Below, piece by piece: positions 5,226-21,591 of a stretch of DNA of 24,000 nt. The DNA is taken from contig JAZSFP010000004.1 of assembly GCA_045532295.1 (NCBI GenBank), positions 796-24,795 on the forward strand. Direction: 5' to 3'. A program made the translations under genes and the position numbers. The notes beneath the pieces are model-generated. The model was not told the DNA's origin and did not search any database. It saw nothing but the letters and a program-made list of their open reading frames with translations. Source of the stretch: Pumilibacteraceae bacterium. Lineage in GTDB: Bacteria; Bacillota; Clostridia; Christensenellales; Pumilibacteraceae. Position 1 is the first letter of the stretch. Each line of letters opens with the position of its first letter.

Positions 5226-5232
5226 ATTACGA

Positions 5233-5322
5233 CCCACGGCGCGTGTGGGCGACTTTTCGCGCCTTTGCGAAGGTTGGTTCACGAGTGTCTTTTCCGCGTA
5301 TAGGCTTTAGTAATTAAGATAC
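5233..5322. repeat. 90-bp direct repeat, copy 1
   Basis: Base-by-base comparison with 5536-5625 shows 88/90 identical. The mismatches are 5303 g vs 5606 t and 5318 g vs 5621 a, at an offset of 303 bp. Confidence 0.95.
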
Positions 5323-5535
5323 GCTCGACTGCACTCACTTCGTTCGTTCCGCTCGGTATGACGACCTTAATTTAGTAGTTGCACCAAATTGGGAGATTCT
5401 AGGCAGGCGCAAGCGCCCTTGGTCTTACGACCGCGCTCCATTGCATTTCGCTCCAGAATGACACGACCAAGCCGAGTGAAAGCACCACCCTTTACTGTCA
5501 TACCGACCGAGCCGTTAGGCGAGTGGAGTGTATCT
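5323..5535. repeat. 213-bp segment with imperfect terminal inverted repeats and internal repeats of the form tcgctc..atgac.cgacc (MITE-like or REP-like)
   Basis: The 5' end is gcactcacttcgttcgttccgctcggtatgac. The reverse complement of the 3' end is acactccactcgcctaacggctcggtcggtatgac. Related copies occur at ~5430-5475. There is no credible ORF. Confidence 0.45.
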
Positions 5536-5625
5536 CCCACGGCGCGTGTGGGCGACTTTTCGCGCCTTTGCGAAGGTTGGTTCACGAGTGTCTTTTCCGC
5601 GTATATGCTTTAGTAATTAAAATAC
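5536..5625. repeat. 90-bp direct repeat, copy 2
   Basis: See copy 1. This copy directly abuts the bidirectional terminator. Confidence 0.95.
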
Positions 5626-5630
5626 AAAAA

Positions 5631-5665
5631 AACCTCAAGTTTTTACGCTTGAGGTTTTCTTTTTA
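5631..5665. terminator. Bidirectional rho-independent terminator between convergent genes
   Basis: AACCTCAAG (5631-5639) pairs with CTTGAGGTT (5648-5656) around an 8 nt loop. An A-run precedes it and TTTTCTTTTT follows. It ends the minus-strand train after the gamma subunit gene and the plus-strand unit from the left. Confidence 0.8.
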
Positions 5666-6196
5666 TTAGTAATTATAACCGAGCATTACTGCTTTGAGGT
5701 TTATTTCGATAAGGTCGGCTTTCTTGGGGGGAACGACTTTTTTCATAGCCTCTTCTAAGCCCTCGATAGAAACGACGCCACTCTCTTTGATGACTTTGCC
5801 GAGCATAATCATATTAGCGAGGGTGGGCGCGCCCATATCCTTCGCCATTTTGGTAGCGGGAATATAGAAAGCGTTAACGTCTTCTCTTGCCACTTTTCTT
5901 TCTATAAGCGTGCTATCAACGACGATTACCGAGCCTGCAACCGCCTCGTTTTCGTATTTATCGAGCGAGGGAAGGTTCATTGCGATTAAGATATCGGGGT
6001 TAGACACGATGGGCGAGCCAACGGGTTCGTCGGAAATGATGATACTGCAGTTTGCCGTACCGCCACGCATTTCAGGACCGTAAGAGGGCAACCAACTTAC
6101 TTGCTTATCCTCGAAAAGTCCCTTGTACGCCAAGAACTTACCTGCAAAGAGTACGCCTTGACCGCCAAAGCCTGCAATTAAGATTTGTTTCGTCAT
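5666..6196 (-). CDS. 2-oxoacid:ferredoxin oxidoreductase, gamma subunit (VOR/KOR type)
   Basis: 176 aa with the N-terminal [14 protein letters not shown] motif typical of OFOR gamma subunits. It is the last gene of the delta-alpha-beta-gamma cluster. Confidence 0.85.
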
Positions 6197-6200
6197 AGTC

Positions 6201-6953
6201 TTAGTCCTCCTTCTTCGCGCTTCTGTCCTTGTAAACGCCTAAGGGATAATAGGGGAGCATTTTCTCCTCTACCCACTCAAGCGCCTTTTGAGGCGTCATA
6301 CCCCAGTTGGTAGGGCAAGAAGAAACGACTTCGATAAGCGAAAAGCCTTTGCCTTCAACTTGGTTACGGAACGCTTTAAGGATTGCCTTTTTAGCGTTCT
6401 TTACGTTTTTAACGGAGTTAACTGCAACGCGCTCAATATATTCAGGACCGTCCAAGGTTGCGAGCATTTCGCTAACTCTAATGGGGAAGCCCTGCGTTGC
6501 GGTATCACGACCGTAGGGGGAGGTTTGCGTTACCTGACCGGGAAGGGAGGTAGGCGCCATTTGTCCGCCCGTCATACCGTAGATAGCGTTGTTTACGAAG
6601 ATAATCGTGATATTCTCGCCTCTGGTTGCTGAGTGTACCGTTTCCGCCATACCGATAGAGGCAAGGTCGCCGTCGCCTTGGTAAGTAAATACGATATTTT
6701 CGGGCATACAGCGTTTAAGTCCCGTTGCAACCGCGGGCGCGCGTCCGTGAGCCGCCTCTAACATATCGCAAGTAAAGTAGTCGTAAGCCATAACCGCGCA
6801 ACCAACGGGCGCAACGCCAATGGTCTTACCTTCAATGCCAAGTTCTTCAATAGCCTCCGCTACGAGACGGTGAATAATACCGTGAGTACAGCCCGGGCAG
6901 TAATGCAAGGGCGTATCGGTGAGCGTAGAGGGTTTTTTAAATACGATAGCCAT
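6201..6953 (-). CDS. 2-oxoacid:ferredoxin oxidoreductase, beta (TPP-binding) subunit
   Basis: 250 aa with CPGCTHG and the TPP motif GDGDLASIG...NNAIYGMTGGQ. Its ATG overlaps the alpha subunit stop (TAATG), and AAGGAGG lies within the alpha 3' end. Confidence 0.9.
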   Translation of the reverse strand: MAIVFKKPSTLTDTPLHYCPGCTHGIIHRLVAEAIEELGIEGKTIGVAPVGCAVMAYDYFTCDMLEAAHGRAPAVATGLKRCMPENIVFTYQGDGDLASIGMAETVHSATRGENITIIFVNNAIYGMTGGQMAPTSLPGQVTQTSPYGRDTATQGFPIRVSEMLATLDGPEYIERVAVNSVKNVKNAKKAILKAFRNQVEGKGFSLIEVVSSCPTNWGMTPQKALEWVEEKMLPYYPLGVYKDRSAKKED

Positions 6954-8014
6954 TATTTAACCTCCTTCGACATCTTTTCGATGCTTGCAAGCACCTCGTC
7001 GGGCGAGGGCAACATACCACCCGTTCTGCTCGTGAGCCATACGGGGCGTTTGCACTCGGTCGCAAGGCGAATATCTTCAATCATTTGACCCATAGAAAGT
7101 TCTACGGAAATAAAGCCTTTAACCTGCTCTGCGGTCTTTTTCAAAACTTCGGTGGGGAAAGGCCAAAGCGTAATGGGGCGAATAAGTCCCACTTTTACGC
7201 CTTTCTTTCTCGCTGCGGTTACCGCGTTTTTGGAAATTCTTGCCGCGATACCGAACGCTACTACGCAGTACTCCGCGTCGTCCATCATATAACTTTCGTA
7301 TAAAACTTCGTCCTTATGGATTTTAGCGTACTTTTCAAAGCGTTCAATATTCGTCTTTTCCAAAATCTCGGGTTTAAGATAGAGCGAATTGATAATATTA
7401 TGCTTTCTCTCGCCCTTAGTTCCGTTAGCAGCCCAAGGCTTTTCAACGGGCGTAGAATTACTCTCGGGGATAGAAACGGGCTCCATCATTTGTCCCATAG
7501 TTCCGTCTGCAAGTAGCATTACGGGCATACGGTATTTGTCCGCTAAGTCGAACGCCTTAATCGTATAGTCCGCCATCTCTTGAACGGAGGCAGGGGCAAG
7601 CACTATAAGATGATAGTCGCCGTGTCCACCGCCCTTGGTCGCTTGGAAGTAGTCCGACTGCGAGGGCTGAATACCACCAAGACCGGGACCGCCACGCTGA
7701 ACGTTGACGATAAGCGCGGGAAGGTCTGCGCCGGCTATGTAGGAAATACCCTCTTGTTTAAGGGAAATTCCGGGGCTTGAAGAGGAAGTCATTACTCTAA
7801 AGCCTGCGCCTGCAACGCCGTAAACCATATTGATTGCGGAAACTTCGCTCTCAGCCTGCAAGAATACTCCACCGATTTTGGGCATACGCTTAGCCATATA
7901 AGCGGCAATCTCCGTTTGAGGCGTGATGGGATAACCAAAGTAGTGTCTGCAACCTGCTTTAATAGCCGCTTCCGCTATCGCCTCGTTACCTTTCATTAAA
8001 ACTTTTTCAGCCAT
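6953..8014 (-). CDS. 2-oxoacid:ferredoxin oxidoreductase, alpha subunit
   Basis: 353 aa. The N-terminus reads KGNEAIAEAAIKAGCRHYFGYPITPQTEI, followed by the internal motif VQRGGPGLGG, both typical of OFOR alpha subunits. Confidence 0.9.
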   Translation of the reverse strand: MAEKVLMKGNEAIAEAAIKAGCRHYFGYPITPQTEIAAYMAKRMPKIGGVFLQAESEVSAINMVYGVAGAGFRVMTSSSSPGISLKQEGISYIAGADLPALIVNVQRGGPGLGGIQPSQSDYFQATKGGGHGDYHLIVLAPASVQEMADYTIKAFDLADKYRMPVMLLADGTMGQMMEPVSIPESNSTPVEKPWAANGTKGERKHNIINSLYLKPEILEKTNIERFEKYAKIHKDEVLYESYMMDDAEYCVVAFGIAARISKNAVTAARKKGVKVGLIRPITLWPFPTEVLKKTAEQVKGFISVELSMGQMIEDIRLATECKRPVWLTSRTGGMLPSPDEVLASIEKMSKEVK

Positions 8015-8026
8015 AATTCGTTCTCC

Positions 8027-8233
8027 TTATCTTTCCACCGTAATCGCGCAGTCGGGACACATCGTAGCGCAGAAAGCGCAACCGATACACGCCTCTTGGT
8101 TGATAACCTCCGCAGGCGAGTGTCCTTTCGCGTTGAGGACGGTCTTGCTAAGTTCAATAATCTTCTTTGGGCAAGCGTGAACGCAAAGTCCACAACCCTT
8201 GCACACGTTTACTTCAATCGTAACTTTTGCCAT
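8027..8233 (-). CDS. 2-oxoacid:ferredoxin oxidoreductase, delta subunit (2x[4Fe-4S] ferredoxin)
   Basis: 68 aa with two CxxCxxCxxxCP motifs (CKGCGLCVHACP and CIGCAFCATMCP). Confidence 0.9.
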   Translation of the reverse strand: MAKVTIEVNVCKGCGLCVHACPKKIIELSKTVLNAKGHSPAEVINQEACIGCAFCATMCPDCAITVER

Positions 8234-8237
8234 TGTC

Positions 8238-8894
8238 TTACTCCTTAATATCGTAATATTTGCTTTGAAGGACGAGGGGGAACGCTCCCTCCATTTCCAC
8301 GGCAGAAGTCGTGAAAAGCACCTTTAGTCCCGTCAAAGCGGAAAGTCTTTCGCACTCGTCTTTAGTCGCTAAGATATCGTTTGCGGTAGTCTCGTCGCCG
8401 AGGTTAGAGTTGTTGATGATTGCGGTGAACTTGATTTTGCACGCGCTCTCAATCTCACGCATAACCTCGATAGCGTCCTCCGCCGTTCTCGTTAGCGGAC
8501 GATAAAAGTTAGCCACGAAACACATTTCGTAATTGTTTTCTTCTAAAATATAGGGGGTATATCTTCCCAGCGCGTACGCTCCTCTATCGTCGCCACCGAC
8601 GTCAATTATTGCAACCGTATTGCGATTTTGGAACATTGAGTACGCTTCGGGAGGAAGGGAAGGAAGGTCTACGTTAGTGTTAGCGAAAGCAGGAAGAATA
8701 ACTTTTACGCCCTTCTCCACTAACTCTCTTTCGCTATCCGCCGAGCGAAAATAGGGGTTGACGATATCAAGGTCAGCGAGCGTTACCGCTTTCCCCTCGC
8801 CCTTTAGCGCGAGCGCGAGGTTGACCGCAATATTCGTTTTTCCGCTACCGTAATGCCCTGCGATTATATAGACGCGCTTGTCTACGCCTTGCAT
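8238..8894 (-). CDS. P-loop NTPase of the MinD/ParA/CooC-like (SIMIBI) type, function unknown
   Basis: 218 aa with Walker A GHYGSGKT at residues 13-20, then LADLDIVNP and the Walker-B-like AIIDVGGDD. It overlaps the ilvE 3' end by 13 nt, which suggests translational coupling. Confidence 0.7.
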   Translation of the reverse strand: MQGVDKRVYIIAGHYGSGKTNIAVNLALALKGEGKAVTLADLDIVNPYFRSADSERELVEKGVKVILPAFANTNVDLPSLPPEAYSMFQNRNTVAIIDVGGDDRGAYALGRYTPYILEENNYEMCFVANFYRPLTRTAEDAIEVMREIESACKIKFTAIINNSNLGDETTANDILATKDECERLSALTGLKVLFTTSAVEMEGAFPLVLQSKYYDIKE

Positions 8895-9961
8895 ACCTTA
8901 CACATCCAGCCGTGAGTATCCTCTACCTTGCCCCACTGAATACCCGTTAAGTTGTCGTAGAGTTTTTGAGTGAGCGCGCCGATTTCGTTATTCGATACGG
9001 TGTACTCAACGCCGTCGTAGAAGAGTTTGCCGATGGGCGAAACGACTGCCGCCGTTCCCGTTCCCCAAGCCTCTTCAAGTTTGCCTTCTTTTGCCGCGGT
9101 AAAGAGTTCGTCGACGGAGAAAAGGCGTTCTTCAACCTCGTAGCCCCACTCTTTGAGAAGTTCTACGCAAGACTTTCTGGTAATACCGGGAAGAACCGAG
9201 CCGGTGAGCGCAGGCGTGATAATCTTTCCGTCCACTTTGAACATTACGTTCATACTGCCTACTTCTTCGATATACTTTCTGTCTACGCCGTCAAGCCAAA
9301 GAACTTGGGTATAACCGTTCTCTTCCGCTCTCTTGCCTGCTCTAAGGGAGGCTGCGTAGTTACCACCGCACTTAGCGTAACCCGTACCACCGCGAACCGC
9401 TCTGACGTCGCTTTGCTCGATAGCGATTTTAACGGGGTTAATGCCCTCTGCGTAGTACGCGCCAACGGGCGAGCAGATTACCACGAACATAGCCTCGTGT
9501 ACTGCGTGAACGCCAAGGTGTGGGTCGTTACCGTACATATAGGGACGAAGGTAAAGGGAAGTTCCCTCGCTGTGAGGAACCCAGTCCTTTTCCACTTCTA
9601 CGATAGTCTTTAAGATATCAAGGCAAGCCTCTTCGTCGATTTGGGGCAAGCAAAGACGCTCCGCGCTATTGTTGAGACGGCGAATATTCTCTAAAGGACG
9701 GAACATTGCAATCTCGTTTTGGGCAGTTCTATAAGCCTTCATACCCTCGAAAATCTCCGCGCCGTAGTGAAGAACGGTGGACGCTGGATGAACGGGGATA
9801 GGCGCGAAAGGTACGATTTGAGCGTCGTACCAGCCCTTGTCCTCCGACCACTTCATAATAAACATATGGTCGGTAAACACTCTACCAAAACCCAGTTTGC
9901 TCTCGTCTTGAGGTTTTTGCTTGGGACTTGTCGTCTTAGTAATTTTAATATCGAATTTCAT
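8882..9961 (-). CDS. ilvE: Branched-chain-amino-acid aminotransferase (fold-type IV)
   Basis: 359 aa with FEGMKAYR, SLYLRP, GTGYAKCGGNYAASL, LPGITR and GTAAVVSPI. AGAGAGG lies 8 nt upstream of the ATG. Only 29 nt separate it from the upstream ligase gene, and that gap has no hairpin. Confidence 0.9.
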   Translation of the reverse strand: MKFDIKITKTTSPKQKPQDESKLGFGRVFTDHMFIMKWSEDKGWYDAQIVPFAPIPVHPASTVLHYGAEIFEGMKAYRTAQNEIAMFRPLENIRRLNNSAERLCLPQIDEEACLDILKTIVEVEKDWVPHSEGTSLYLRPYMYGNDPHLGVHAVHEAMFVVICSPVGAYYAEGINPVKIAIEQSDVRAVRGGTGYAKCGGNYAASLRAGKRAEENGYTQVLWLDGVDRKYIEEVGSMNVMFKVDGKIITPALTGSVLPGITRKSCVELLKEWGYEVEERLFSVDELFTAAKEGKLEEAWGTGTAAVVSPIGKLFYDGVEYTVSNNEIGALTQKLYDNLTGIQWGKVEDTHGWMCKVCKA

Positions 9962-9990
9962 AATATATACCTCTCTAAAAATAGTATAAT

Positions 9991-12285
9991 CTATAATTTA
10001 TTTCTTTGGATTTTACCCGAAGTCGTCTTGGGAAGTTCGTCGCGGAATACGACTACTCTGGGGTACTTATAAGGCGCGGTGCGTTCTTTAACGTAGGCTT
10101 GGATTTCCTTTTTGAGTTCTTCCGTGCCCTCCGTTCCCTTAACGAGCACTATGCTCGCCTTAACTACTTGACCGCGAACCTCGTCGGGCTGAGCGGAAAC
10201 GCCACACTCAAGCACGTAGGGAAGTTCCATAATGACGTTCTCGATTTCAAAAGGTCCGATGCGGTAACCAGACGACTTAATAACGTCGTCAACGCGTCCT
10301 ACGTACCAGTAATAGCCGTCCTCGTCGCGCCAAGCGGTGTCGCCCGTATGGTAATATCCGTCGTGCCAACACTCCGCCGTCTTTTCCTCGTCGTCGTAGT
10401 AGCCCACGAACAAGCCGTTGGGTTTGCCGTGCTCGGTCTTGATACAGATTTCGCCCACTTCGCCCACCGCGGTAGGTTTGCCGTCGGCGTCGAGAAGTTT
10501 AATGTCGTATAGGGGTACGGGCTTACCCATTGAGCCAAGGCGCGAGGTCGTGCCTGCAAGGTTAGCAAGCGCAACGGTGGTTTCCGTTTGACCAAAGCCC
10601 TCCATAATCTGAAGTCCCGTTGCCTTTTCAAACTGACGGAAAACTTCGGGGTTGAGCGCCTCGCCGGCAGTTGACATATGCTCGATTGAGGAAAGGTCGA
10701 AGTTGGAAAGGTCTTGCTTTATCATCATTCTAAGCATAGTCGGGGGAGCACAGAAAGTGGTTATATGGTACTTTGCGAACATAGGCATAATGTCGTTTGC
10801 GTCGAAACGGTCAAAGTCGTAAACGAACAGTCCCGCCTCGCAAAGCCATTGTCCGTAAAGTTTACCCCACGCTGCCTTTGCCCAACCCGTGTCGGATATG
10901 GTAAGGTGTAGTCCGTCGGGGTTTACCGAGTGCCAGTACTTTGCGGTTATAAAGTGTCCTAAGGGGTACTTGTAGTTGTGCATAGCAATCTTGGGATTGC
11001 CGGTAGTACCCGAGGTAAAGTACATAAGCATTATATCGTCTCCGCAAGGAGCGTCCTCGCCTCTTTCAAGTTTGCCCGTATAGAGCGTATACTCTTCGTC
11101 GAAGGTTCTCCAGCCCTCACGCTTGCCGTTGACCATAATGATATGCTCGAGCGAGGGAGCGTTCTCTTTTGCCTTTTCCACCTCGAAAGACACTTCGCCG
11201 TCAGCGGTACAAAGGATTGCTTTTACGCCCGCTTTGTTAAGACGGTAAGTAATATCGTGCTCTTTAAGTTGGTTGGTAGCGGGGATTGCGATTGCGCCGA
11301 TCTTGTGAAGAGCGACCATAGCGAACCAGAACTGATAGTGGCGTTTGAGGATAAGCATTACCCTATCGCCTTTCTTAATTCCAAGCGCCTTGAAGTAGTT
11401 TGCGCACTGGTTAGAGGCGCGTTTAAGGTCGTGGAAAGTAATTCTTCGCTCCGTTTTGTCGTTCGATATATGCATAAGCGCGGTCTTGTCGGGGTCTTTG
11501 TCCGCAATAGCGTCCACCACGTCAAAGCCGAAGTTAAAGGTATCGTCGTTTCTAAAGGATATGGAAGTAGGTACTCCTCTCCCGTCCTCGGTAGTCGTGA
11601 TATACTTTTCCCAAACGCGTTTTCCCTCGTCCTTTTTCTTGGGAGGCGCGAACACCACGTCGGGCTCGTTGATTTTTGCGTGGGTAATGGTAGAAACGGA
11701 CTCGCGAGCAGGGTTAAGAACGAACGCGTAGAACACGCAGTCTGCGTTGTCCACCGCTATCATACCGTGAGGAACGGAACTGTCGTAGTAAATGCTGTCG
11801 CCCTCGCGGAGAATTTCGATATGATTTCCTACCTGTACTTTTAACGCGCCCGATACTACCACGTCGCACTCTTGTCCTTCGTGCGAGGTTAGTTCTATGG
11901 GCTTATTTTGTTGGAGAGGGTCGTACGAGGACACTACGAACAACGGCTCGGCAATTCTGTTCTTAAAGGCGGAGGCGAGGTTATAGTAAACCATACCGTG
12001 AGCCTTTTGAATTTCTTGACCTTCGCCCTTTCGCGTTACCGTGTATCCTGCAAGTCGAGGACCGCTACCGTCGATAATTTCGGTTACGTCAACCTTTAAA
12101 GCGGCTGCGCAACGGTACAAAAAGGCAAAGTTAAGGTCGCTACTACCGTTCTCGCAAGAGGCGTACTCTTCTTCGCTTACGCCCGTCTTTTGCGCCATTT
12201 CTTCAATCGAAAGTCCTTCGATTTCACGCAAAGTGCGAATACGCTGTGCCATCTCCATTATTTTGCTTTCTAAACTGTTAAACAT
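9991..12285 (-). CDS. Fusion protein: XRE-type HTH + cupin + AMP-forming acyl-CoA synthetase (medium-chain/ACSM-like), paralog 1 (Val T-box controlled)
   Basis: 764 aa counted from ATG 12285 (AGGAG 6 nt upstream); the track's extra 14 codons lie in the leader. The HTH is RIRTLREIEGLSIEEMAQKTGVSEEEYASCENG. The cupin is HEGQECDVVVSGALKVQVGNHIEILREGDSIYYDSSVPHGM. Ligase motifs are FTSGTTGNPK, SDTGW, GFGQTET, YHTGD, SSGYRIGPFEIE and PKTTSGKIQR. Confidence 0.85.
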   Translation of the reverse strand: MFNSLESKIMEMAQRIRTLREIEGLSIEEMAQKTGVSEEEYASCENGSSDLNFAFLYRCAAALKVDVTEIIDGSGPRLAGYTVTRKGEGQEIQKAHGMVYYNLASAFKNRIAEPLFVVSSYDPLQQNKPIELTSHEGQECDVVVSGALKVQVGNHIEILREGDSIYYDSSVPHGMIAVDNADCVFYAFVLNPARESVSTITHAKINEPDVVFAPPKKKDEGKRVWEKYITTTEDGRGVPTSISFRNDDTFNFGFDVVDAIADKDPDKTALMHISNDKTERRITFHDLKRASNQCANYFKALGIKKGDRVMLILKRHYQFWFAMVALHKIGAIAIPATNQLKEHDITYRLNKAGVKAILCTADGEVSFEVEKAKENAPSLEHIIMVNGKREGWRTFDEEYTLYTGKLERGEDAPCGDDIMLMYFTSGTTGNPKIAMHNYKYPLGHFITAKYWHSVNPDGLHLTISDTGWAKAAWGKLYGQWLCEAGLFVYDFDRFDANDIMPMFAKYHITTFCAPPTMLRMMIKQDLSNFDLSSIEHMSTAGEALNPEVFRQFEKATGLQIMEGFGQTETTVALANLAGTTSRLGSMGKPVPLYDIKLLDADGKPTAVGEVGEICIKTEHGKPNGLFVGYYDDEEKTAECWHDGYYHTGDTAWRDEDGYYWYVGRVDDVIKSSGYRIGPFEIENVIMELPYVLECGVSAQPDEVRGQVVKASIVLVKGTEGTEELKKEIQAYVKERTAPYKYPRVVVFRDELPKTTSGKIQRNKL

Positions 12286-12353
12286 AATTACTCCTATAAG
12301 TAAGCGAATAATAAGGCTATCGTTCAATAGACATAGGCTATGGAACAGAGCCT

Positions 12354-12626
12354 ACAAAAAACGCTCGTCTCAAAAAATCATCTTTGAGACGAGCATACTT
12401 TTCCGTATTACCCGCGGTACCACTCAAATTGCGCAAGCGCGCCACCTCAGGCTCAAACAAGCCGTAGACTTTTACGCAGTCGTCACGGGAAGGTTCTAAT
12501 AGGGCGAGCGCCCGTTCTTCCTTCCGACTCGGAAGTTACAGTTCTTTTCTCACTTTAACGGTTCACACCTTCGTCCGTCTCTCTGAAAAGTTACCCAAAA
12601 AGAACACTCTTCGTCACAGTCTTTAC
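12354..12626 (-). promoter_or_regulatory. T-box riboswitch leader, specifier GUA (Val)
   Basis: Read on the minus strand. GA/K-turn: GACT-GTGAC-GAAG pairs with CTTC-CGA-GTC. AG bay: AGAGAG. Distal stem ACGG/CCGT has a loop containing GGTGTGA. Specifier loop: GAAC-U-GUA-A-CUUC, with the codon at the complement of 12537-12539. T-box motif: AATTTGAGTGGTACCGCGGG (complement of 12411-12430). Terminator: GCTCGTCTCAA/TTGAGACGAGC (12363-12394) plus GTTTTTTGT. TTTGAG of the T-box can pair with CTCAAA of the terminator 5' arm to form the antiterminator. Confidence 0.9.
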
Positions 12627-12632
12627 GGGGCA

Positions 12633-12661
12633 ATTATACCATTTTTAATATGGTTTGTCAA
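12633..12661 (-). promoter_or_regulatory. Consensus SigA-type promoter of the Val T-box unit
   Basis: Minus strand: TTGACA (12661-12656), a 17 nt spacer, then TATAAT (12638-12633) preceded by TGg (extended -10). It starts 45 nt downstream of the paralog-2 stop codon. Confidence 0.85.
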
Positions 12662-12706
12662 CGATTTTTCAAAGGTTTCTTACATTATTTATACTATACT
12701 ATATAA

Positions 12707-14974
12707 TTATAATTTATTTCTTTGGATTTTACCCGAGATAGTCTTGGGCAGTTCGTCGCGGAAGACTACGATACGGGGGTACTTATAGGGCGCGGTATGG
12801 GACTTAACGTAGGCTTGGATTTCCTTTTTAAGTTCTTCCGTTCCCACCGTTCCTTTGGTTAAAACTACGCTCGCCTTAACTACCTGACCACGAATATCGT
12901 CGGGCTCGGGGGACACGGCGCACTCAAGCACGTAGGGAAGTTCCATAATAACGCTCTCGATTTCAAAAGGTCCGATGCGGTAGCCAGACGACTTGATAAC
13001 GTCGTCTTTACGGCTAACGTACCAAAAATATCCGTCCTCGTCGCGCCAAGCGGTGTCGCCCGTGTGGTAAACGCCGTCGTGCCAAGCGTCAGCGGTAAGG
13101 TCTTCCGCTCTGTAATATTCCTTGAAAAGTCCACAGGGAACGGACTCGTCGGTATGGATAACGATTTCGCCCGTCTCACCGTTGGGAAGAGAATTGCCCT
13201 CGTCGTCCACGATATCCACTCTGTACTGGGGCGACGCTTTACCCATCGAGCCGATTTTGGGCGTCGTTCCGCGGAGGTTACAGATAGTAAGCGTGGTTTC
13301 CGTTTGGCCAAAGCCCTCCATAATCTTAAGCCCCGTAGCGTGCTCGAACTGACGGTAAACCTCGGGGTTGAGCGCCTCGCCTGCCGTGGTCATATGATGA
13401 ACGGAGGAAAAATCGTACTTTCCAAGGTCGCTCTTTATGAACATTCTGAGCATAGTTGGGGGAGCGCAGAAGGTCGTGATTTGGTACTTTGCGAACATAG
13501 GAAGGATTTCCTCTGCCTTGAAGACGTCGAAGTCGTAAACGAACACCGCGCCTTCGCAAAGCCATTGACCGTACAGTTTGCCCCAGAGCGATTTGCCCCA
13601 GCCCGTATCGGAAATGGTAAAGTGTAGTCCGTCGCGCTCGCAGTTATGCCAGTATTTAGCGGTAACGTAATGTCCAAGCGCGTAGGTGTGCTTGTGAGCC
13701 GCCATTTTAGGATTGCCCGTCGTTCCAGAAGTGAAGAACATAAGCGCGGTATCCTCGCCGGCAGAGGCGTTCTCTGCGCGGTCGAACTTGCTCGAAAAAC
13801 GCGTGTACTCTTCGTTAAAGTTATGCCAGCCCTCTTTTTCGCCGTTGACGAGCAACTTAACTTCCACGGAAGGACAGTTCTTCGACGCGCGCTCGGCAAT
13901 GTCGGAAACGTCGCCGTCGGCAGTACAAACGATAGCCTTTACGCTCGCTGCGTTAAAGCGGTATTCAAAGTCGTGCTCTTTGAGTTGGTTGGTAGCAGGG
14001 ATTGCGACCGCGCCGATTTTATGAAGAGCGACCATAGCGAACCAGAACTGATAATGGCGTTTAAGCACGAGCATTACCTTATCCCCTCTCTTAATTCCAA
14101 GCGAGAGGAAGTAGTTCGCGCACTGGTTAGAGGCTTTTTTGATATCCTTAAAGGTAAATCTGCGCTCCGTTAAATCACGGCTTATATGGAGCATAGCAAG
14201 TTTATCGGGGTACTTATTCGCAATCTCGTCCACAACGTCAAAGCCGAAGTTAAAGGTGTCGGTATTCTTGAACTTAATGTCGGTAAGAGTGCCGTTCTCG
14301 TCCTCGGTGGTCTCGACGAACTTCTCGCAAATAAGTTCCTCGGACTCCTGATGCGCCACTACGCTCTTTCTTACTACCTCTTCCTTGGTGTCCTCGCCGG
14401 GAAGAACTACCGCGCAGAACACGCAGTCGCGTCCGCCGATTGCTATCATACCGTGAGGGGTGGACGAATTATAGTAAATGCTGTCGCCCTCGTTAAGAAT
14501 TTCCGTATGCTCGCCGATTTGTACTTTAAGCGAACCCTCTAAAACGAGGTCGAACTCTTGACCGCCGTGGGTGGTAAGGTGGATAGGCTTATTCTGTTGC
14601 GACGCAGAATACTCGTATCTTACCCAGTAAGGCTGAGCAATTTTATCGCGGAACTTGGGCGCAAGGTTCTTAATGTCGATGCCCTCTTCTTTAGCCGTCG
14701 ACTGTCCCTGTCCCTTTCTCGTTACCGTATAAGAAGATAGGTTCGCAGCGTTACCTTCAAGAAGTTCGGTAAGTTCTACGCCGAAAACTAACGCGCATTT
14801 ATGAATAAATGAAAAGGGAATATCTATTCGACCAGACTCGTATTTAATGTAATCGCTCTCGCTAACTTCAGCGCGATTTGCCATTTCCGATACCGAAAAT
14901 CCCATTACGTTACGCATTTCTTTGATACGCTGGGCAACTTCCGTCAGTCTGTTCATAGTGTTCTTGTCTTCCAT
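12707..14974 (-). CDS. Fusion protein: XRE-type HTH + cupin + AMP-forming acyl-CoA synthetase, paralog 2 (Ile T-box controlled)
   Basis: 755 aa counted from ATG 14974 (AAGGAG 9 nt upstream). The track's extra 43 codons run through the T-box terminator. The architecture and motifs match paralog 1 (FTSGTTGNPK, SDTGW, GFGQTET, YHTGD, SSGYRIGPFEIE, PKTISGKIQR), and both share the C-terminal end SGKIQRNKL. Confidence 0.85.
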   Translation of the reverse strand: MEDKNTMNRLTEVAQRIKEMRNVMGFSVSEMANRAEVSESDYIKYESGRIDIPFSFIHKCALVFGVELTELLEGNAANLSSYTVTRKGQGQSTAKEEGIDIKNLAPKFRDKIAQPYWVRYEYSASQQNKPIHLTTHGGQEFDLVLEGSLKVQIGEHTEILNEGDSIYYNSSTPHGMIAIGGRDCVFCAVVLPGEDTKEEVVRKSVVAHQESEELICEKFVETTEDENGTLTDIKFKNTDTFNFGFDVVDEIANKYPDKLAMLHISRDLTERRFTFKDIKKASNQCANYFLSLGIKRGDKVMLVLKRHYQFWFAMVALHKIGAVAIPATNQLKEHDFEYRFNAASVKAIVCTADGDVSDIAERASKNCPSVEVKLLVNGEKEGWHNFNEEYTRFSSKFDRAENASAGEDTALMFFTSGTTGNPKMAAHKHTYALGHYVTAKYWHNCERDGLHFTISDTGWGKSLWGKLYGQWLCEGAVFVYDFDVFKAEEILPMFAKYQITTFCAPPTMLRMFIKSDLGKYDFSSVHHMTTAGEALNPEVYRQFEHATGLKIMEGFGQTETTLTICNLRGTTPKIGSMGKASPQYRVDIVDDEGNSLPNGETGEIVIHTDESVPCGLFKEYYRAEDLTADAWHDGVYHTGDTAWRDEDGYFWYVSRKDDVIKSSGYRIGPFEIESVIMELPYVLECAVSPEPDDIRGQVVKASVVLTKGTVGTEELKKEIQAYVKSHTAPYKYPRIVVFRDELPKTISGKIQRNKL

Positions 14975-15042
14975 TTTTCTAATCTCCTTTTTATTTTTTA
15001 AGGCTGTGAGCGGAGGGGGCAAATAGTCTTTAAGGCGAAGAC

Positions 15043-15315
15043 CTAAAAAACCCATCTCAATGATTCTAACATTGAGACGGGTTAAAATAACTCGCGGTAC
15101 CACTCAACTTGCATAAAAAATTATGCCACTTATCAGGTTCAAACAAACCCTACGCACTAACGCAGCGGACTCGGAAAGCGCCTACTAAAGCAATCGCTCT
15201 TTGGGGCTTTCGGCTCGGAAGTGATAGGTCTTGCGGACTCTTCGTTTATCGGTTCTCAGCAACCCGACTCTCTGGAAAACTATTTATCCAACCGTCTTCG
15301 TCACAGCCTTTATAT
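15043..15315 (-). promoter_or_regulatory. T-box riboswitch leader, specifier AUC (Ile)
   Basis: Read on the minus strand. GA/K-turn: GGCT-GTGAC-GAAG pairs with CTTC-CGA-GCC. AG bay: AGAGAG. Distal stem TCGG/CCGA has a loop containing GCTGAGA. Specifier loop: GACC-U-AUC-A-CUUC, with the codon at the complement of 15223-15225. T-box motif: AAGTTGAGTGGTACCGCGAG (complement of 15091-15110). Terminator: ACCCGTCTCAATG/CATTGAGATGGGT (15050-15082) plus TTTTTTAGG. Confidence 0.9.
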
Positions 15316-15321
15316 GCGCCT

Positions 15322-15350
15322 ATTATAGCACTACGCTTTTTCTTTGTCAA
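15322..15350 (-). promoter_or_regulatory. Consensus SigA-type promoter of the Ile T-box unit
   Basis: Minus strand: TTGACA (15350-15345), a 17 nt spacer, then TATAAT (15327-15322) preceded by TGc. It begins 30 nt after the amidohydrolase stop. Confidence 0.85.
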
Positions 15351-15379
15351 CGATTTTACAAGGGTTTTTTAAATTTTTT

Positions 15380-16174
15380 TTACAAGTTTTTCAAGTTAAA
15401 TACCCTTATTGCGTTCTTGTAAAAAATCTGCTCTCTCTCCTCTTCGGTTAAGCCCAAAGCGTTAAAGCGCGCCATTTCCTCGTCAATCTTCCACATAGGA
15501 AAATCGGTAGCGAAAAGCACTCTTTGTGCGCCGTACTTTCTTATAACGGCGGTAGCGGTTTGAGGGGAAATCATTGCAAGCGAACTTGAACAATCCACGA
15601 AAACCTGCTTATAGGGCGCAAGTTTTTCCACCGCCTCTTCCCAAACGGAATATCCGCCGAGGTGCGCGGCAATTACCGTAAGATTTGGGAAACGCTCCAA
15701 AACGCTTATGAGGTTTTCGGGGTTAGAATAATTGTAACGGCTATCGCCTGCGTGGATAAGCAAGGGAATTTTGCCCTCGATTGCGCGGTAAATCTTGTCG
15801 CATCGTGGGTCGTCAAGCGCGATTGCTTGAATATCGGGGTGGAGTTTTACGCCGTGAAGATTGAGCGATATAATCTCTTCCACTTCGCTTTCCACCTCTT
15901 CGCTATCGGGGTGGAGCGTTCCAAGTCCGATAAAGCGGTCGGGACGGCTTTTAACCATATCCGCAATAAAGTGGTTTATGGATCGGACTTGCGAGGGCTT
16001 AGTTGCAACGGAGAAAATAACGGAGTGCGTTACGCCGTTCTTCTCACTCTCGCTTATAAGCGTTTCCACTCGTCCGTCGTAGTCCATCGGGATAGAATAG
16101 AACTTGCCTATGCTCTCCACTGCTTTTTCAACGATTTTCTCGGGGTAAATATGGCAATGACAGTCGATAATCAT
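15380..16174 (-). CDS. TIM-barrel metal-dependent hydrolase (amidohydrolase-2 / COG2159-like)
   Basis: 264 aa with N-terminal IIDCHCH (HxH metal motif), later HLGG and FATDFP. It is the last gene of the Leu T-box unit, starting 4 nt after the upstream stop. Confidence 0.7.
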   Translation of the reverse strand: MIIDCHCHIYPEKIVEKAVESIGKFYSIPMDYDGRVETLISESEKNGVTHSVIFSVATKPSQVRSINHFIADMVKSRPDRFIGLGTLHPDSEEVESEVEEIISLNLHGVKLHPDIQAIALDDPRCDKIYRAIEGKIPLLIHAGDSRYNYSNPENLISVLERFPNLTVIAAHLGGYSVWEEAVEKLAPYKQVFVDCSSSLAMISPQTATAVIRKYGAQRVLFATDFPMWKIDEEMARFNALGLTEEEREQIFYKNAIRVFNLKNL

Positions 16175-16177
16175 ACC

Positions 16178-18631
16178 TTACCCCTTTATGCCGAGCATTT
16201 CCACGCTCTGCTCTTTCATCTTATATTTAAGAATTTTGCCCGCAGCGTTCATCGGGAATTCTTTGACGAACACGAAGTAACGGGGTACTTTGTGTTTAGC
16301 CATATTAGCGTTACCGTACTCGCGCATTTCCGCCTCGTCCGCCGTTTCGCCTTTTTTAAGGATTATCCAAGCGCAACATTCTTCGCCGTATCTCTCGTCG
16401 GGAACGCCCACTACTTGCACGTCGCGAACTTTTTGGTGAGTAAGATAGAACTCTTCAATCTCGCGAGGATAGAGGTTTTCGCCACCGCGAATAATCATAT
16501 CTTTAAGTCTGCCCGTAACCTTATAGTATCCGTCCGCAGTTTTGCAACAGATATCTCCGCTATGGAGCCAGCCTTCTCTATCAATCGCCTCGCTGGTTGC
16601 TTTGGGCATTTTGTAATAGCCTTTCATTATATTATAACCGCGCGCAACGAACTCGCCGTTCTCACCGTCGGGAACTTCCTCGCCCGTTTCGGGGACGATA
16701 ACCTTACACTCAACGCCGGGGAAAGCCGAGCCTACCGTTTCCACTCTATGCTCTTCGTCCTCGTTGACTTCGCCCATAGTGCACCCGGGGCTTGCCTCGG
16801 TCTGACCGTAAACGCTGATTATCTCGCGCATATTCATTTCCGCCGACGCTCTGCGCATAAGGTCTGCCGGACAGTTCGCCCCTGCCATTATTCCCGTTCG
16901 CATATACGAAAAGTCCGTTTTAGCAAAGTCGGGGTGGTTGAACATAGCGATAAACATCGTGGGAACGCCGTTAAAGGCGGTAATATGCTCGTCGTTTACG
17001 CAAGCAAGCGAACTTTTTGGCGAGAAGTAGGGCATAGGACACATAGTTACGCCGTGCGTCATACTGTTCGTCATTGAAAGCACCATACCAAAGCAATGGA
17101 ACATAGGTACTTGTATCATCATTCTGTCCGCCGTGGACATATCCATTCTGTCGCCTATGATTTTACCGTTGTTGACGATATTGCGATGAGTGAGCATTAC
17201 GCCTTTAGGAAAGCCCGTAGTACCCGAAGTGTACTGCATATTGCACACGTCGTCGGGGCGAACGAGCGCGGCGCGTCTTCTAACCTCTTCGTCAGGAACG
17301 AGAACGCTCCTCTTCATAAAGTCTTCCCACTCTAAGCATCCGTCCATATTAAAGCCTACCGTTATTACGTTGCGAAGGAAAGGCAAGGTCTTTGAGTAAA
17401 GGGGCTGGGCGGGGGTTAAATTTTTAAGTTCGGGACAAAGTTCTTCGATTATTTCTTTATAGTTACTGTCCTTGCAACTGTCAATCATAACGAGCGTATG
17501 CGTGTCGGACTGACGGAGGAGGTACTCTGCCTCGTGGATTTTATAAGCGGTATTAACCGTAACGAGAACCGCGCCGATTTTTACCGTCGCCCAGAAGGTA
17601 AGATACCACTGAGGAATATTCGTCGCCCAAATTGCCACGTGGTGTCCGGGGCGCACGCCAAGGGATATAAGTGAGGCGGCTACTTTATCCACTTCGTCAC
17701 GGAATTCGCGATAGGTACGCGTATAATCGTGCGTGGTATACTTAAAAGCGTACTGGTCGGGATAATGCTCTACCATAGTGTCGAGAACCTCGGAAAAGGT
17801 AAGGTCGAGAACTTCGTACTTTTTCCAAGGGTGCGTTCCGCTCTTATCTCTATTATAGAAAATTTCCTTGGGTTTTGCGCTCGCCCGTTCAATCGAACTC
17901 ATAAAACTTTCAAAGTGCGTGAGCAAAATATCGGGGTTAGTAACCTCGCCGGCGGAAAGCGCGCAGATATAACCGTCGTAGTTAAGGGAACGGAGCGCGC
18001 TTATAAACTCGCCTACGGGCAGTTCGCCCTCGCCCATAAGCGTGTCTTCGCCATCAAGCATATCGCCGATTTTAACGTACTCAATGTACGCGCCCAAAGT
18101 CTGAATAGTGCGGTCGGCAGTCTCTTTCGCTCTAAAGAAGGTCTCGCGGATATTCCAGCACACCTTTACCGACGCCGAGCCCAGCATACCTATAACGCCC
18201 AAGATTTTCTCAGTGTGAGCAAGCGCGTTCGCCGTCTCTATTAAAATATCAACGCCGTACTCTTCCGCCGTCTTTATTACAGGGGTAAAGATTTCCTTGA
18301 TTTTTTCCTCCGTAATTTCGCCAAAGGTAACCACGACGCCCGGAGCAGTTACGCGTCCTGCTTGCTTAATCGTTTCGATAATATCCTGAGGGTTGGTGTT
18401 TTGGTCGATAATCTTGGGATAGCCCACTACCGCTATGGCAATTCTGCGGTTGATAAGTTTGCGCTTTTGGTCAACGGTAAGTTCCTCGCGGAAAATACTG
18501 TCCGCGTGCGCGCTAATCTGTTCTTCTATCGACGATATTTCAAAGCCCGAAAACCCGTAATGCGCCGTAGCGGTGCAAAGTTCAAGGAAACTTTTAGTGG
18601 GTACGAGCGAAGTAGAAAATGCAAGTTTCAT
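16178..18631 (-). CDS. Fusion protein: xylose-isomerase-like TIM barrel (N-terminal ~250 aa) + AMP-dependent acyl-CoA ligase (FadD/ACSF2-like)
   Basis: 817 aa. The N-terminal part (GFSGFEIS...VVVTFG...DILIETAN...VCWNIRETF...YVKIGD...GELPVGEFISALRSLNYDGYI) looks like the AP-endonuclease-2/xylose-isomerase fold. The C-terminal part has YTSGTTGFPKGVMLTH, YGQTE, LHSGD, RGGENLYPREIE and AAGKILK. The 471-aa plus-strand ORF at 15662-17077 is an antisense shadow. Confidence 0.8.
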   Translation of the reverse strand: MKLAFSTSLVPTKSFLELCTATAHYGFSGFEISSIEEQISAHADSIFREELTVDQKRKLINRRIAIAVVGYPKIIDQNTNPQDIIETIKQAGRVTAPGVVVTFGEITEEKIKEIFTPVIKTAEEYGVDILIETANALAHTEKILGVIGMLGSASVKVCWNIRETFFRAKETADRTIQTLGAYIEYVKIGDMLDGEDTLMGEGELPVGEFISALRSLNYDGYICALSAGEVTNPDILLTHFESFMSSIERASAKPKEIFYNRDKSGTHPWKKYEVLDLTFSEVLDTMVEHYPDQYAFKYTTHDYTRTYREFRDEVDKVAASLISLGVRPGHHVAIWATNIPQWYLTFWATVKIGAVLVTVNTAYKIHEAEYLLRQSDTHTLVMIDSCKDSNYKEIIEELCPELKNLTPAQPLYSKTLPFLRNVITVGFNMDGCLEWEDFMKRSVLVPDEEVRRRAALVRPDDVCNMQYTSGTTGFPKGVMLTHRNIVNNGKIIGDRMDMSTADRMMIQVPMFHCFGMVLSMTNSMTHGVTMCPMPYFSPKSSLACVNDEHITAFNGVPTMFIAMFNHPDFAKTDFSYMRTGIMAGANCPADLMRRASAEMNMREIISVYGQTEASPGCTMGEVNEDEEHRVETVGSAFPGVECKVIVPETGEEVPDGENGEFVARGYNIMKGYYKMPKATSEAIDREGWLHSGDICCKTADGYYKVTGRLKDMIIRGGENLYPREIEEFYLTHQKVRDVQVVGVPDERYGEECCAWIILKKGETADEAEMREYGNANMAKHKVPRYFVFVKEFPMNAAGKILKYKMKEQSVEMLGIKG

Positions 18632-18633
18632 AG

Positions 18634-19992
18634 TTATTTTTCCTCGTGTACGATTTTGTTAAGGGCGTTTACGTACGCGCGAACGCACGCTCCGATAATG
18701 TCGGTTGAAACGCCGTTGCCGGGGTAAAGTTTTCCGTTAGCGCGAAGTCTAATGATGGCCGAGCCTACCGCCTCTCTGCCTTTCGTGATTGCGGAAATGC
18801 GGAAGTCGTCAAGTTCGTAATGGTGTCCTACGACCTGCTCAATTGCGTGGAACACCGCGTCGATAGGACCGTCGCCCGTGCTTACTCCGCTAAAACGCTC
18901 GCCGTTCTTCTCAAGCGTTACGTTCGCAGTCGCCGAAATTATGCTACCGCTGTTTACAACGTAACTAACGAGGTGATAGGTAGAAGGCGCTTGCATAGCG
19001 GTGGAGGCGATTACTGCCTCAAGTTCACGCTTGTCAACCGACTTTTTGCGAACGGTAAGACGCTTAAATTCGTCGTAAACCTTGCCCGTGTCCTCGTCCG
19101 TAAGTTCGTATCCAAGCGATTTTATTACCGCGCTAACCTCAGAAAGCGTGCTTGAAGAGGAAAGTTTAACCGTCTTTTCCTCCTCCTCGCTCTCTTTTTC
19201 CGTTACCGCGCTTGCTTGCTCGCTAATGTTTTTAATGGAAGTGATATCAATGTTTGCGCTCGCGTTGAGCGTACCGCCCTTTGCTCTAATAACCTCGGCA
19301 AAAACCGCTGGGCGAAGGAACGCTCCGCTAATGGAAGTTACCACACCGTCCGCGCCACTCTCAATAGCCTTAATAGCGTTCGCGCTCGCTAAAGAAAGAG
19401 CGTCCGAGGGACAAGCAATGACGGAAATTTTCGATACCGTATTGATTTTTTCGAGCATTTTTGCGTAATCTTCGGGAAAAGCCTCGCCTGCCTCGTCGTA
19501 AATAATTACTCCGCTTGCGCCCTTCTCTTCTACCGCTTTAACGCACTTTTCGATAAAGCCTTCCTCCGCTCTAAAAGCGTCGGTGAGCATAACGAAAACC
19601 TCACTACATTTTGCTTTTGCGCACTCGGTAAGCAACGCTATTTTTTCAAGCATAGCCGAGGCTTTAAGATGATATTTGTACTCCATAGTCGCAGTGGAAA
19701 CGGGCATAGACACTACGAGCGCAGGGGCAACCGCTCCCTTAACGCAAGCATAGGCGCGCTCTATTCCCTTTTCGCTATCGCCTACCTCTACGGCAACTTT
19801 TGCGTTTTTAACGGACTCAGCGAGCGTTTTGTAGATTACTTCGCTCTCTTTACTAACGCCGGGGAAAGGCAAATAAATAATATCCACTCCGCTCTTGTCA
19901 AGTAGCGCGCATAGGTTTAGTCTTTCACGGAAGGTAAAGTTTTCCTTCTCAATGGTCTTGAGCGTTGCGTCTATAGTAATGATTTTTTTCAT
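18634..19992 (-). CDS. 2-isopropylmalate-synthase-like protein (DRE-TIM barrel + LeuA C-terminal regulatory domain) with non-canonical active-site residues
   Basis: 452 aa with AGGAGG 9 nt upstream of the ATG. It is collinear with LeuA, but IDATLKTIEKE replaces FDTTLRDGEQ and SVIACPSDALSLASANAIKAIESGA replaces [23 protein letters not shown]. The C-terminus (GVSTGDGPIDAVFHAIE...ISAITKGREAVGSAIIRL...GNGVSTDIIGACVRAYVNALNK) matches the LeuA dimerisation and Leu-binding domain pattern. Confidence 0.75.
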   Translation of the reverse strand: MKKIITIDATLKTIEKENFTFRERLNLCALLDKSGVDIIYLPFPGVSKESEVIYKTLAESVKNAKVAVEVGDSEKGIERAYACVKGAVAPALVVSMPVSTATMEYKYHLKASAMLEKIALLTECAKAKCSEVFVMLTDAFRAEEGFIEKCVKAVEEKGASGVIIYDEAGEAFPEDYAKMLEKINTVSKISVIACPSDALSLASANAIKAIESGADGVVTSISGAFLRPAVFAEVIRAKGGTLNASANIDITSIKNISEQASAVTEKESEEEEKTVKLSSSSTLSEVSAVIKSLGYELTDEDTGKVYDEFKRLTVRKKSVDKRELEAVIASTAMQAPSTYHLVSYVVNSGSIISATANVTLEKNGERFSGVSTGDGPIDAVFHAIEQVVGHHYELDDFRISAITKGREAVGSAIIRLRANGKLYPGNGVSTDIIGACVRAYVNALNKIVHEEK

Positions 19993-20019
19993 AATTTATT
20001 GCCTCCTAAAGTCAAATAC

Positions 20020-20292
20020 ATAAACAAAACCCGCAGATGAGAAGATTTCCTTCTCTTCTGCGGGATGATTACAAAGAACCACGGTACCACCCGTCATTGC
20101 CGTAAAATACGACCTCTTATAGAACTCCAACAAGTCCGTTCGCTATAACGGGCGCGCCCGTAATTCCTTACTATAAGTTCCGGAATTCCGCTCCGATACG
20201 AGACTGCTATCCCGTCCGCCCGTTATCTCGCACCAACCGATAACTCTCTGAAGGGTTTTTGACGACACGCATAATATCTTCACAGCGTTTAT
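20020..20292 (-). promoter_or_regulatory. T-box riboswitch leader, specifier CUC (Leu)
   Basis: Read on the minus strand. GA/K-turn: CGCT-GTGAA-GATA pairs with TATC-GGA-GCG. AG bay: AGAGAG. Distal stem TTATC/GATAA has a loop containing GGTGCGA. Specifier loop: GCAG-U-CUC-G-UAUC, with the codon at the complement of 20200-20202. T-box motif: AATGACGGGTGGTACCGTGG (complement of 20079-20098). Terminator: CCCGCAGAAGAGAAG/CTTCTCATCTGCGGG (20030-20064, one mismatch) plus TTTTGTTTAT. Confidence 0.9.
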
Positions 20293-20298
20293 GGTGGT

Positions 20299-20327
20299 AT
20301 ATTATCATTTTTGAAAAAATATGTCAA
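20299..20327 (-). promoter_or_regulatory. SigA-type promoter of the Leu T-box unit
   Basis: Minus strand: TTGACA (20327-20322), a 17 nt spacer, then TAATAT (20304-20299). Confidence 0.75.
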
Positions 20328-20488: not shown

Positions 20489-20542
20489 TTTTGTAGTATT
20501 TTTCCGTTAAAAATCAGTCAAATATTGCGACAGTGCCTTTAT

Positions 20543-21460: not shown

Positions 21461-21489
21461 AGATATACCTTCTTTATCGTAATAAAGTA

Positions 21490-21518
21490 ATTATAGCATA
21501 TACTTTCGTAAAAAACAA
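21490..21518 (-). promoter_or_regulatory. Candidate promoter for the transporter gene
   Basis: Minus strand: TTGTTT-N17-TATAAT. GAAGG lies 7 nt upstream of the ATG at 21460. Confidence 0.45.
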
Positions 21519-21540
21519 GGATTTTAGTAAGGGAAAACGC

Positions 21541-21569
21541 TTGTTTTTTTGTTTTCGTTAGTGTATAAT
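21541..21569 (+). promoter_or_regulatory. Candidate promoter for the hydrolase/glycosidase unit
   Basis: TTGTTT (21541-21546), a 17 nt spacer, then TATAAT (21564-21569). The two divergent -35 hexamers lie in the arms of a 10-bp A/T-rich inverted repeat (21510-21519 and 21540-21549). Confidence 0.45.
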
Positions 21570-21591
21570 ACTTCCAAGGAGTGTGAAACTT

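Follow-up and report, generated by a model that had tools for sequence, protein, structure and literature searches.

Three T-box leaders and the genes behind them

The window analysed here is a 24,000-nucleotide stretch from a Pumilibacteraceae bacterium (assembly GCA_045532295.1, contig JAZSFP010000004.1, positions 796 to 24,795), and positions are numbered from its first letter. It holds a gene cluster in which three T-box leaders with Leu, Ile and Val specifiers follow one another. Each leader stands at the head of a unit that contains an AMP-forming acyl-CoA ligase gene, and the Val unit continues into the genes for a branched-chain aminotransferase (IlvE) and for an oxidoreductase of the 2-oxoisovalerate:ferredoxin oxidoreductase (VOR) type. 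All features of the cluster lie on the minus strand. Genes were annotated by sequence searches against Pfam, NCBIfam and PDB. Positions 5666-19992 contain 11 genes, not the 13 of the original prediction. The gene content that it had named was recovered in the Pfam and NCBIfam searches: a LeuA-like gene, a ligase and an amidohydrolase in the Leu unit, a second ligase in the Ile unit, and a third ligase, IlvE, a P-loop NTPase and the VOR delta, alpha, beta and gamma subunits in the Val unit. The translations of the ligases, the VOR subunits and IlvE carry the usual catalytic and cofactor motifs.

Leader membership was assessed with the Rfam covariance model RF00230, whose gathering score is 93. 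The Rfam scan gave three full-length matches in the window (model positions 1-219), all on the minus strand, as predicted. The Leu leader (20058-20292; 111.1 bits, E 3.9e-24) exceeds the gathering score. The Ile leader (15070-15313; 86.7 bits, E 1.1e-18) and the Val leader (12382-12626; 75.4 bits, E 9.5e-16) score below it, yet their E-values are far from chance. In the related genomes described below, the gathering score is passed by orthologous Ile leaders (loci L045 and L028) and Val leaders (L045, L010 and L072). In the covariance-model alignments the specifier triplet and the base that follows it read CUC-G, AUC-A and GUA-A, the same triplets as had been read from the sequence beforehand, and all three are located directly 5' of the helix that closes the specifier loop. 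The bulge is UGGU in each leader, which agrees with the A73 discriminator usual in tRNA-Leu, tRNA-Ile and tRNA-Val.

Each leader has its own strong sigma-70-type promoter with a TG extension, TTGACA-17-TAATAT for Leu (20299-20327; 10/12 matches) and TTGACA-17-TATAAT for both Ile (15322-15350; 12/12) and Val (12633-12661; 12/12). Each also has its own terminator, a hairpin followed by a U-tract, at 20022-20064 for Leu (-33.8 kcal/mol, z -4.89), 15049-15083 for Ile and 12361-12396 for Val. The 5' arm of the terminator overlaps the 3' arm of the antiterminator in every leader (z -4.1 to -4.9). Together, these results show that the cluster contains three genuine, complete T-box leaders with Leu, Ile and Val specifiers. 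Their membership of the T-box family suggests that each would be antiterminated by its cognate uncharged tRNA. The cluster is closed by an intrinsic terminator at 5626-5661. It had been described as the only strong terminator present; one does end the cluster there, but it is the sole strong one only if those of the leaders are set aside. As no terminator separates the units from one another, transcripts begun upstream must also pass the downstream leaders.

The Val unit runs, in the predicted order and without an intervening terminator, from its ligase to the VOR gamma gene, and these genes overlap or lie at most 29 nt apart. IlvE (8882-9961) is a class IV branched-chain aminotransferase that scores 481 bits against a cutoff of 307 with NF009897 and 390 against 250 with TIGR01123. 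It is followed by a P-loop NTPase of the MinD/ParA/Mrp class (8238-8894, 218 aa, assigned with Pfam) and then by the VOR subunits. The delta subunit (8027-8233) has two [4Fe-4S] motifs, the alpha subunit (6953-8014) is of the POR_N/PFOR_II type and matches NF005507 VorB with 567 bits against a cutoff of 399, the beta subunit (6201-6953) is of the thiamine-diphosphate-binding kind and gave sub-cutoff matches to beta models only, and the gamma subunit (5666-6196) reaches 84.2 bits against 81.1 with TIGR02175. Across the four subunits the Pfam domains are POR_N/PFOR_II, TPP_enzyme_C, POR and 2x[4Fe-4S].

Specifier codons and their downstream genes in related genomes

Species-representative genomes were scanned with the Val-unit ligase, which gave at least 591 related stretches; the best 80 were analysed, and the comparisons below refer to these. 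All 80 are from uncultured Oscillospirales-type metagenome-assembled genomes of ruminant and human guts, assigned to the Acutalibacteraceae, Oscillospiraceae, Ruminococcaceae and 'Eubacteriales'. A covariance model was built from the three window leaders with their terminators left out, the specifier column was read off the model alignment, and the downstream gene was assigned by tblastn with the window proteins. This model found 188 further leaders in the 80 species-level genomes, so that the leader-ligase pairing, whose recurrence in relatives had been proposed as a check, is not peculiar to the window. Leaders in front of a LeuA-like gene (n=40) read CUC in 37 cases and CUG in 3, those in front of an Ile-class ligase read AUC in 66/66, and those in front of a Val-class ligase (n=81) read GUA in 77, GUC in 2 and GUG in 1, with 1 misaligned. 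The 187 leaders with an assigned gene thus show six third-position changes, one misaligned codon and not a single switch of amino acid. Four other leaders are either truncated at contig ends or part of an unrelated Met unit.

This constancy is not a property of the leaders as a whole. Within-class leader identity is merely 62-72%, and only 19-46% of the columns are conserved at 95% or more, whereas specifier positions 1 and 2 are conserved at 98-100% and position 3 varies synonymously only. These data demonstrate that each specifier, be it Leu, Ile or Val, has stayed with its own kind of downstream gene through evolution, and they agree with the expectation that orthologous leaders would keep codons for branched-chain amino acids (BCAAs).

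The gene order that is kept among the loci is Ile T-box, ligase, Val T-box, ligase, P-loop NTPase and VorDABG, with IlvE either before the P-loop gene or after VorDABG. The placement of the Leu unit varies (upstream, downstream or divergent), and its T-box specifier is always Leu. In L014 (16676-16788) and L033 (16634-16769) the Leu unit follows ilvE at about 110-135 nt without a T-box of its own, and hence belongs to the Val operon there. One locus, L072, has a T-box with an AUG (Met) specifier adjoining the cluster (1333-1554, minus strand), whose downstream gene leaves the locus.

The P-loop gene is always directly 5' of vorD (74 loci). Its product, labelled 'hypothetical protein' in databases, has an invariant Walker A motif GHYGSGKT and no conserved cysteine among the 74 orthologues. 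A NifH-like role, in which it would deliver low-potential electrons to VOR at the expense of ATP, was considered and rejected on account of this missing cysteine.

Three ligases with fused N-terminal domains

The acyl-CoA ligase-type genes of the original prediction were confirmed as such, but all three encode extra N-terminal domains that it had not noticed. In the Ile unit (12707-14974, 755 aa) and in the Val unit (9991-12285, 764 aa) the protein consists of an HTH_XRE domain, a cupin_2 domain and a MACS-type AMP-forming ligase. The nearest solved structure for both is 3ETC (617 and 609 bits, respectively), the Macs enzyme of M. acetivorans (MacsMa), and the top NCBIfam family for both is MbcS. 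The core motifs TSGTTGNPK, FGQTET, YHTGD and SGKIQR are present in the two proteins and conserved in both classes. When 149 HTH-cupin ligases were divided into two groups by unsupervised average-linkage clustering, the specifier classes were reproduced exactly; ligases of the same class share 73-77% identity on average, and an Ile-class and a Val-class ligase share 64%. Since the clusters coincide with the specifier classes, the split between the Ile and Val paralogues is old, and each of them is tied to a single tRNA.

Fifteen residues separate the classes, 13 of them in the HTH-cupin module, including its presumed recognition helix, and two in the ligase domain. The residue after the Trp of the SDTGW motif is Ala in 80/80 Val-class proteins (SDTGW-A-K in the window) and Gly in 66/66 Ile-class proteins (SDTGW-G-K); MacsMa also has Gly here. 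This Trp is assumed here to be the pocket residue Trp259 of MacsMa. A bulkier Ala, and with it a smaller pocket, in the putative isobutyrate enzyme would fit the smaller acid. A second position is common to both classes: with WWQTETG as the presumed register of acetyl-CoA synthetase, their FGQTET motif places Gly where that enzyme has its acetate-restricting Trp. The rule by which this Trp gates for acetate in acetyl-CoA synthetase, as opposed to Gly in MACS, was described for MacsMa, which favours 2-methylbutyrate and adenylates C3-C8 acids (PMC10455477). Purified MbcS activates 2-methylbutyrate and isobutyrate selectively and accepts isovalerate very poorly (PMC10026030), which fits the presence of a different ligase family behind the Leu leader. 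Judged from their relatives, the specifier pairing and the class-specific Ala or Gly, the Ile-class protein is a candidate 2-methylbutyrate-CoA ligase and the Val-class protein a candidate isobutyrate-CoA ligase.

The N-terminal module of the two MACS-type ligases is PuuR-like and comprises about 200-220 residues, starting near residue 10. Its alignment with 1Y9Q, an HTH_3-cupin regulator, runs over the full length, and the Pfam HTH and Cupin_2 matches exceed their cutoffs in both proteins. The layout is therefore that of PuuR-type regulators such as 1Y9Q, with the difference that the module is fused here to an enzyme. No conserved operator for the fused HTH was found by upstream alignments or by inverted-repeat and k-mer counts. 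These comparisons yielded just the promoter hexamers, leader sequence and palindromes of A/T runs. The palindromes, located upstream of the -35 element, consist of a run of five or six T, 1-5 nt and a run of five or six A (for example in L037, L039 and L032). They occur in 23/65 Ile and 14/40 Leu promoters but in only 6/81 Val promoters, and may represent either an UP element or a site for protein binding. A TGTGATA/TATCACA repeat in a subset of the Ile promoters overlaps the extended -10 element and the leader start, and could not be told apart from them.

The Leu unit is built differently. Its first gene (18634-19992) had been predicted as LeuA-like, which is what it is, but its catalytic degeneracy had been overlooked. 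The 452-aa product combines a degenerate HMGL-type barrel with a LeuA_dimer domain, as judged from Pfam and NCBIfam matches and from alignment with the 2-isopropylmalate synthase 3EWB. In this alignment DTTLRDGEQ is changed to DATLKTIEKE (R to K, D to T) and HxH to CxS, so that neither the substrate Arg nor the metal-binding residues (the Asp and both His) are retained. The counterpart of GERAGN, located by eye in the translation, is GAFLRP. Among 41 orthologues the RDGEQ, HxH and GERAGN positions are variable, and the C-terminal LeuA_dimer domain is the best conserved part (column entropy 0.55-1.2 bits vs 1.3-2.3 in the barrel). In the window protein this domain (PF08502) scores 104.9 bits against a cutoff of 24.9, while all 2-isopropylmalate synthase models remain far under their cutoffs (best 231.7 bits vs 532). 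These models nevertheless match with E 1e-68, their best stretch being C-terminal, compared with E 2e-10 for the Ile-regulated citramalate synthase.

The two-domain layout and the Leu T-box upstream are shared with 2-isopropylmalate synthase (LeuA), as for many leuA genes, but the catalytic and metal-binding residues that are intact in LeuA are replaced here. The LeuA-like protein is thus catalytically degenerate and not a 2-isopropylmalate synthase. Its present use, as a pseudo-enzyme, may be to sense Leu, and its gene is perhaps the remnant of an ancestral T-box-leuA operon. The gene, labelled 'hypothetical protein' in databases, always adjoins that of an 817-aa ligase (16178-18631 in the window). 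The latter is a fusion of an N-terminal xylose-isomerase-like TIM barrel (17840-18631) with an AMP-forming acyl-CoA ligase of the FadD/PRK12583 type; the solved structures closest to this ligase part are those of fatty-acyl-, feruloyl- and malonyl-CoA synthetases. From its position behind the Leu leader, it is a candidate isovalerate-CoA ligase. The fused barrel is kept in 38/40 complete orthologues and evolves much faster than the ligase domain. Paralogy with the free AP_endonuc_2 TIM-barrel gene of the flank (4419-5225) was considered and dropped, as 25% identity only is not informative; the same weak alignment suggests that several metal ligands are missing from the fused barrel. The third gene of the unit (15380-16174) encodes an Amidohydro_2 protein of 264 aa, assigned with Pfam, which no NCBIfam family matches. 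It appears to be an accessory to the Leu unit, which it accompanies in 28 loci, with varying presence and position (it precedes the Leu leader in L001 and comes after vorG in L047).

The flanks of the cluster (1-5600 and 20500-24000) are unrelated to it. They encode an M18 aminopeptidase (984-2240, minus strand), a RimK-like ATP-grasp protein (3450-4355) and the free AP_endonuc_2 protein on one side, and an EamA transporter (20543-21460, minus strand), an alpha/beta hydrolase (21583-22257) and a GH39-like protein (22275-23624) on the other. No tRNA gene was found in the window.

A candidate route from branched acids to amino acids

AMP-forming ligases work towards the thioester, and 2-oxoacid:ferredoxin oxidoreductases are reversible. 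We consider it probable that the cluster encodes a starvation-induced route by which BCAAs are made from exogenous branched short-chain fatty acids, through T-box-gated ligases, reductive carboxylation by VOR and transamination by IlvE. Uncharged tRNA-Leu (CUC), tRNA-Ile (AUC) and tRNA-Val (GUA) would be read by the three transcription-attenuating leaders, in which they would stabilise the antiterminator and allow read-through. Each leader would then release a ligase for the matching acid (acid + ATP + CoA to acyl-CoA): 2-methylbutyrate for the Ile leader, isobutyrate for the Val leader and, with the other ligase family, isovalerate for the Leu leader. VOR, encoded on the Val transcript, would convert the acyl-CoA with CO2 and reduced ferredoxin to the 2-oxo acid, from which IlvE, on the same transcript, would form Val, Ile and Leu with glutamate as amino donor.

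The chemistry has precedents. In ruminococci, carboxylation of isovalerate yields Leu (Allison 1962, cited in PMC7356843), and methanogens convert 2-methylbutyrate to Ile and isovalerate to Leu (PMC10658910). That VOR acts reductively on branched substrates in this cluster we infer from its operon context with the ligases and IlvE and from the logic of the T-boxes. The salvage interpretation of the original prediction is supported to this extent: the computational tests of the leaders, of their pairing with the ligases and of specifier conservation were all favourable, and the substrates and the direction of VOR are inferred.

Several observations weigh against this interpretation. Both MACS-type ligases score 441-442 bits against an MbcS equivalog cutoff of 850 and are hence relatives, not equivalogs, of MbcS, and the Leu-unit ligase is without a characterised branched-acid relative. 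The VOR beta subunit and most of the gamma models are likewise under equivalog cutoffs, so that the 2-oxo-acid specificity can only be presumed. The Val leader alone gates VOR and IlvE, so that starvation for Ile only or for Leu only would need basal read-through or further gene copies outside the cluster. A precedent for shared enzymes gated by a single amino acid is the B. subtilis ilv-leu operon with its one Leu T-box. The three-step scheme does not account for the LeuA-like protein, the TIM barrel, the amidohydrolase, the P-loop NTPase or the HTH-cupin modules. Finally, four loci have a solitary Val leader and ligase in unrelated surroundings (L020, 9689-12280; L052, 9698-12274; L071; L080), with VOR and IlvE absent within 10 kb.

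These solitary units would also be expected if starved cells scavenged branched acids as branched acyl-CoA primers for membrane fatty-acid synthesis, sparing scarce amino acids from breakdown without making BCAAs themselves. MbcS, the nearest named ligase family, does just this in S. aureus (PMC10026030). As the main purpose of the cluster we regard it as unlikely: in most genomes IlvE and VOR are co-transcribed with the Val ligase under a starvation signal, oxidative IlvE and VOR would consume Val exactly when tRNA-Val is uncharged, and classical labelling, according to PMC7356843, puts acid carbon into amino acids. The two uses are compatible and not mutually exclusive.

The low family scores raise a different question, namely whether the same T-box wiring and supply role could serve other substrates, such as hydroxy acids, keto-acid derivatives or straight-chain acids, or a general 2-oxoacid oxidoreductase. 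The ligases lie under their equivalog cutoffs with an 'acetate-CoA ligase' model as second-best family, MacsMa adenylates a wide range of acids, C3-C8 (PMC10455477), and the Leu-unit ligase resembles feruloyl-, malonyl- and fatty-acyl-CoA synthetases. However, the strict link between paralogue class and specifier requires three substrates that map to Leu, Ile and Val, for which the branched acids are the obvious ones, and the acetate-gating Trp is replaced by Gly; this explanation appears quite improbable to us. A catabolic, energy-yielding operon leading from amino acid through 2-oxo acid and acyl-CoA to acid, with T-boxes serving some other purpose, is very hard to reconcile with the cluster, for although amino-acid fermenters are established to run IlvE and VOR in this direction, T-boxes are turned on by a shortage of the amino acid, with its tRNA uncharged, AMP-forming ligases conserve no ATP in the acid-forming direction, and an ADP-forming synthetase or a phosphotransacylase/kinase pair is absent from the cluster.

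Some of the parts that the salvage route leaves aside could form a second, protein-level layer of sensing on top of the T-boxes, with each ligase coupled to a ligand-sensing module. The HTH-cupin modules and the LeuA-like protein, with its Leu-binding regulatory domain, would then sense the end product or the acid substrate and feed back on ligase activity or, through the HTH, on transcription initiation. We put this forward tentatively, as a possibility that we would not favour at present. If true, tRNA charging and acid availability would together form an AND gate, and the LeuA-like protein would be an enzyme-derived pseudo-enzyme turned allosteric sensor.

Relation to known systems and significance

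The T-box-controlled BCAA genes known from B. subtilis (ilv-leu) and from Geobacter, where a T-box lies upstream of leuA (PMC2494555), have the same leader architecture, the same attenuation and a specifier that names the pathway product. Their targets are de novo ilv/leu enzymes, whereas those of the cluster are acyl-CoA ligases and a ferredoxin oxidoreductase, with no aminoacyl-tRNA synthetase or transporter among them, preceded by three specifiers in series, each with a paralogue-specific ligase. MacsMa (3ETC) and MbcS resemble the two MACS-type ligases in their domain, in Gly at the Trp position, in SDTGW and in an inferred preference for alpha-branched C4/C5 acids. The cluster enzymes add the HTH_XRE-cupin module, the division into two specialised paralogues and the predicted tRNA control, and the product of MbcS goes into lipids rather than amino acids.

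Reductive carboxylation in rumen bacteria and methanogens follows the same chemistry from acid to acyl-CoA, 2-oxo acid and amino acid, and the alpha subunit of the cluster falls in the VorB family; an anabolic VOR of Methanothermobacter was reportedly described by Tersteegen et al. in 1997. That work concerns physiology and enzymes. What the cluster offers, read from sequence, is the genes, their regulation and a specificity label for each branch. In the literature searched we found no bacterial gene cluster or regulation for branched-acid carboxylation. Full-text searches found no T-box control of acyl-CoA ligases or of VOR, although an earlier mention is possible; the T-box survey of Wels 2008 does not mention acyl-CoA, oxidoreductase or ferredoxin, and the regulon survey of Sun 2013 does not mention acyl-CoA, ferredoxin oxidoreductase or vor. 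As far as can be told, the parts are of known kinds and the wiring is new, that is, a predicted tRNA-gated salvage by reductive carboxylation with serial specifiers, paralogue-specific ligases and fused sensor-like modules.

That rumen and gut anaerobes need branched volatile fatty acids was recognised in the 1960s, and ruminant feeding makes use of it. The cluster is a candidate for the complete gene set, widespread in uncultured gut Oscillospirales, with specifier codons that label each branch. This opens the specificity of the ligases, the use of VOR in the reductive direction and the prediction of auxotrophy from metagenomes to direct tests. The analysis also exposes conserved parts that are uncharacterised, namely the regulator-ligase fusion, the dead LeuA and the P-loop protein that accompanies VOR. 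If the salvage interpretation is correct, the T-box regulon would extend beyond aminoacyl-tRNA synthetases, de novo biosynthesis and transporters to a salvage route.

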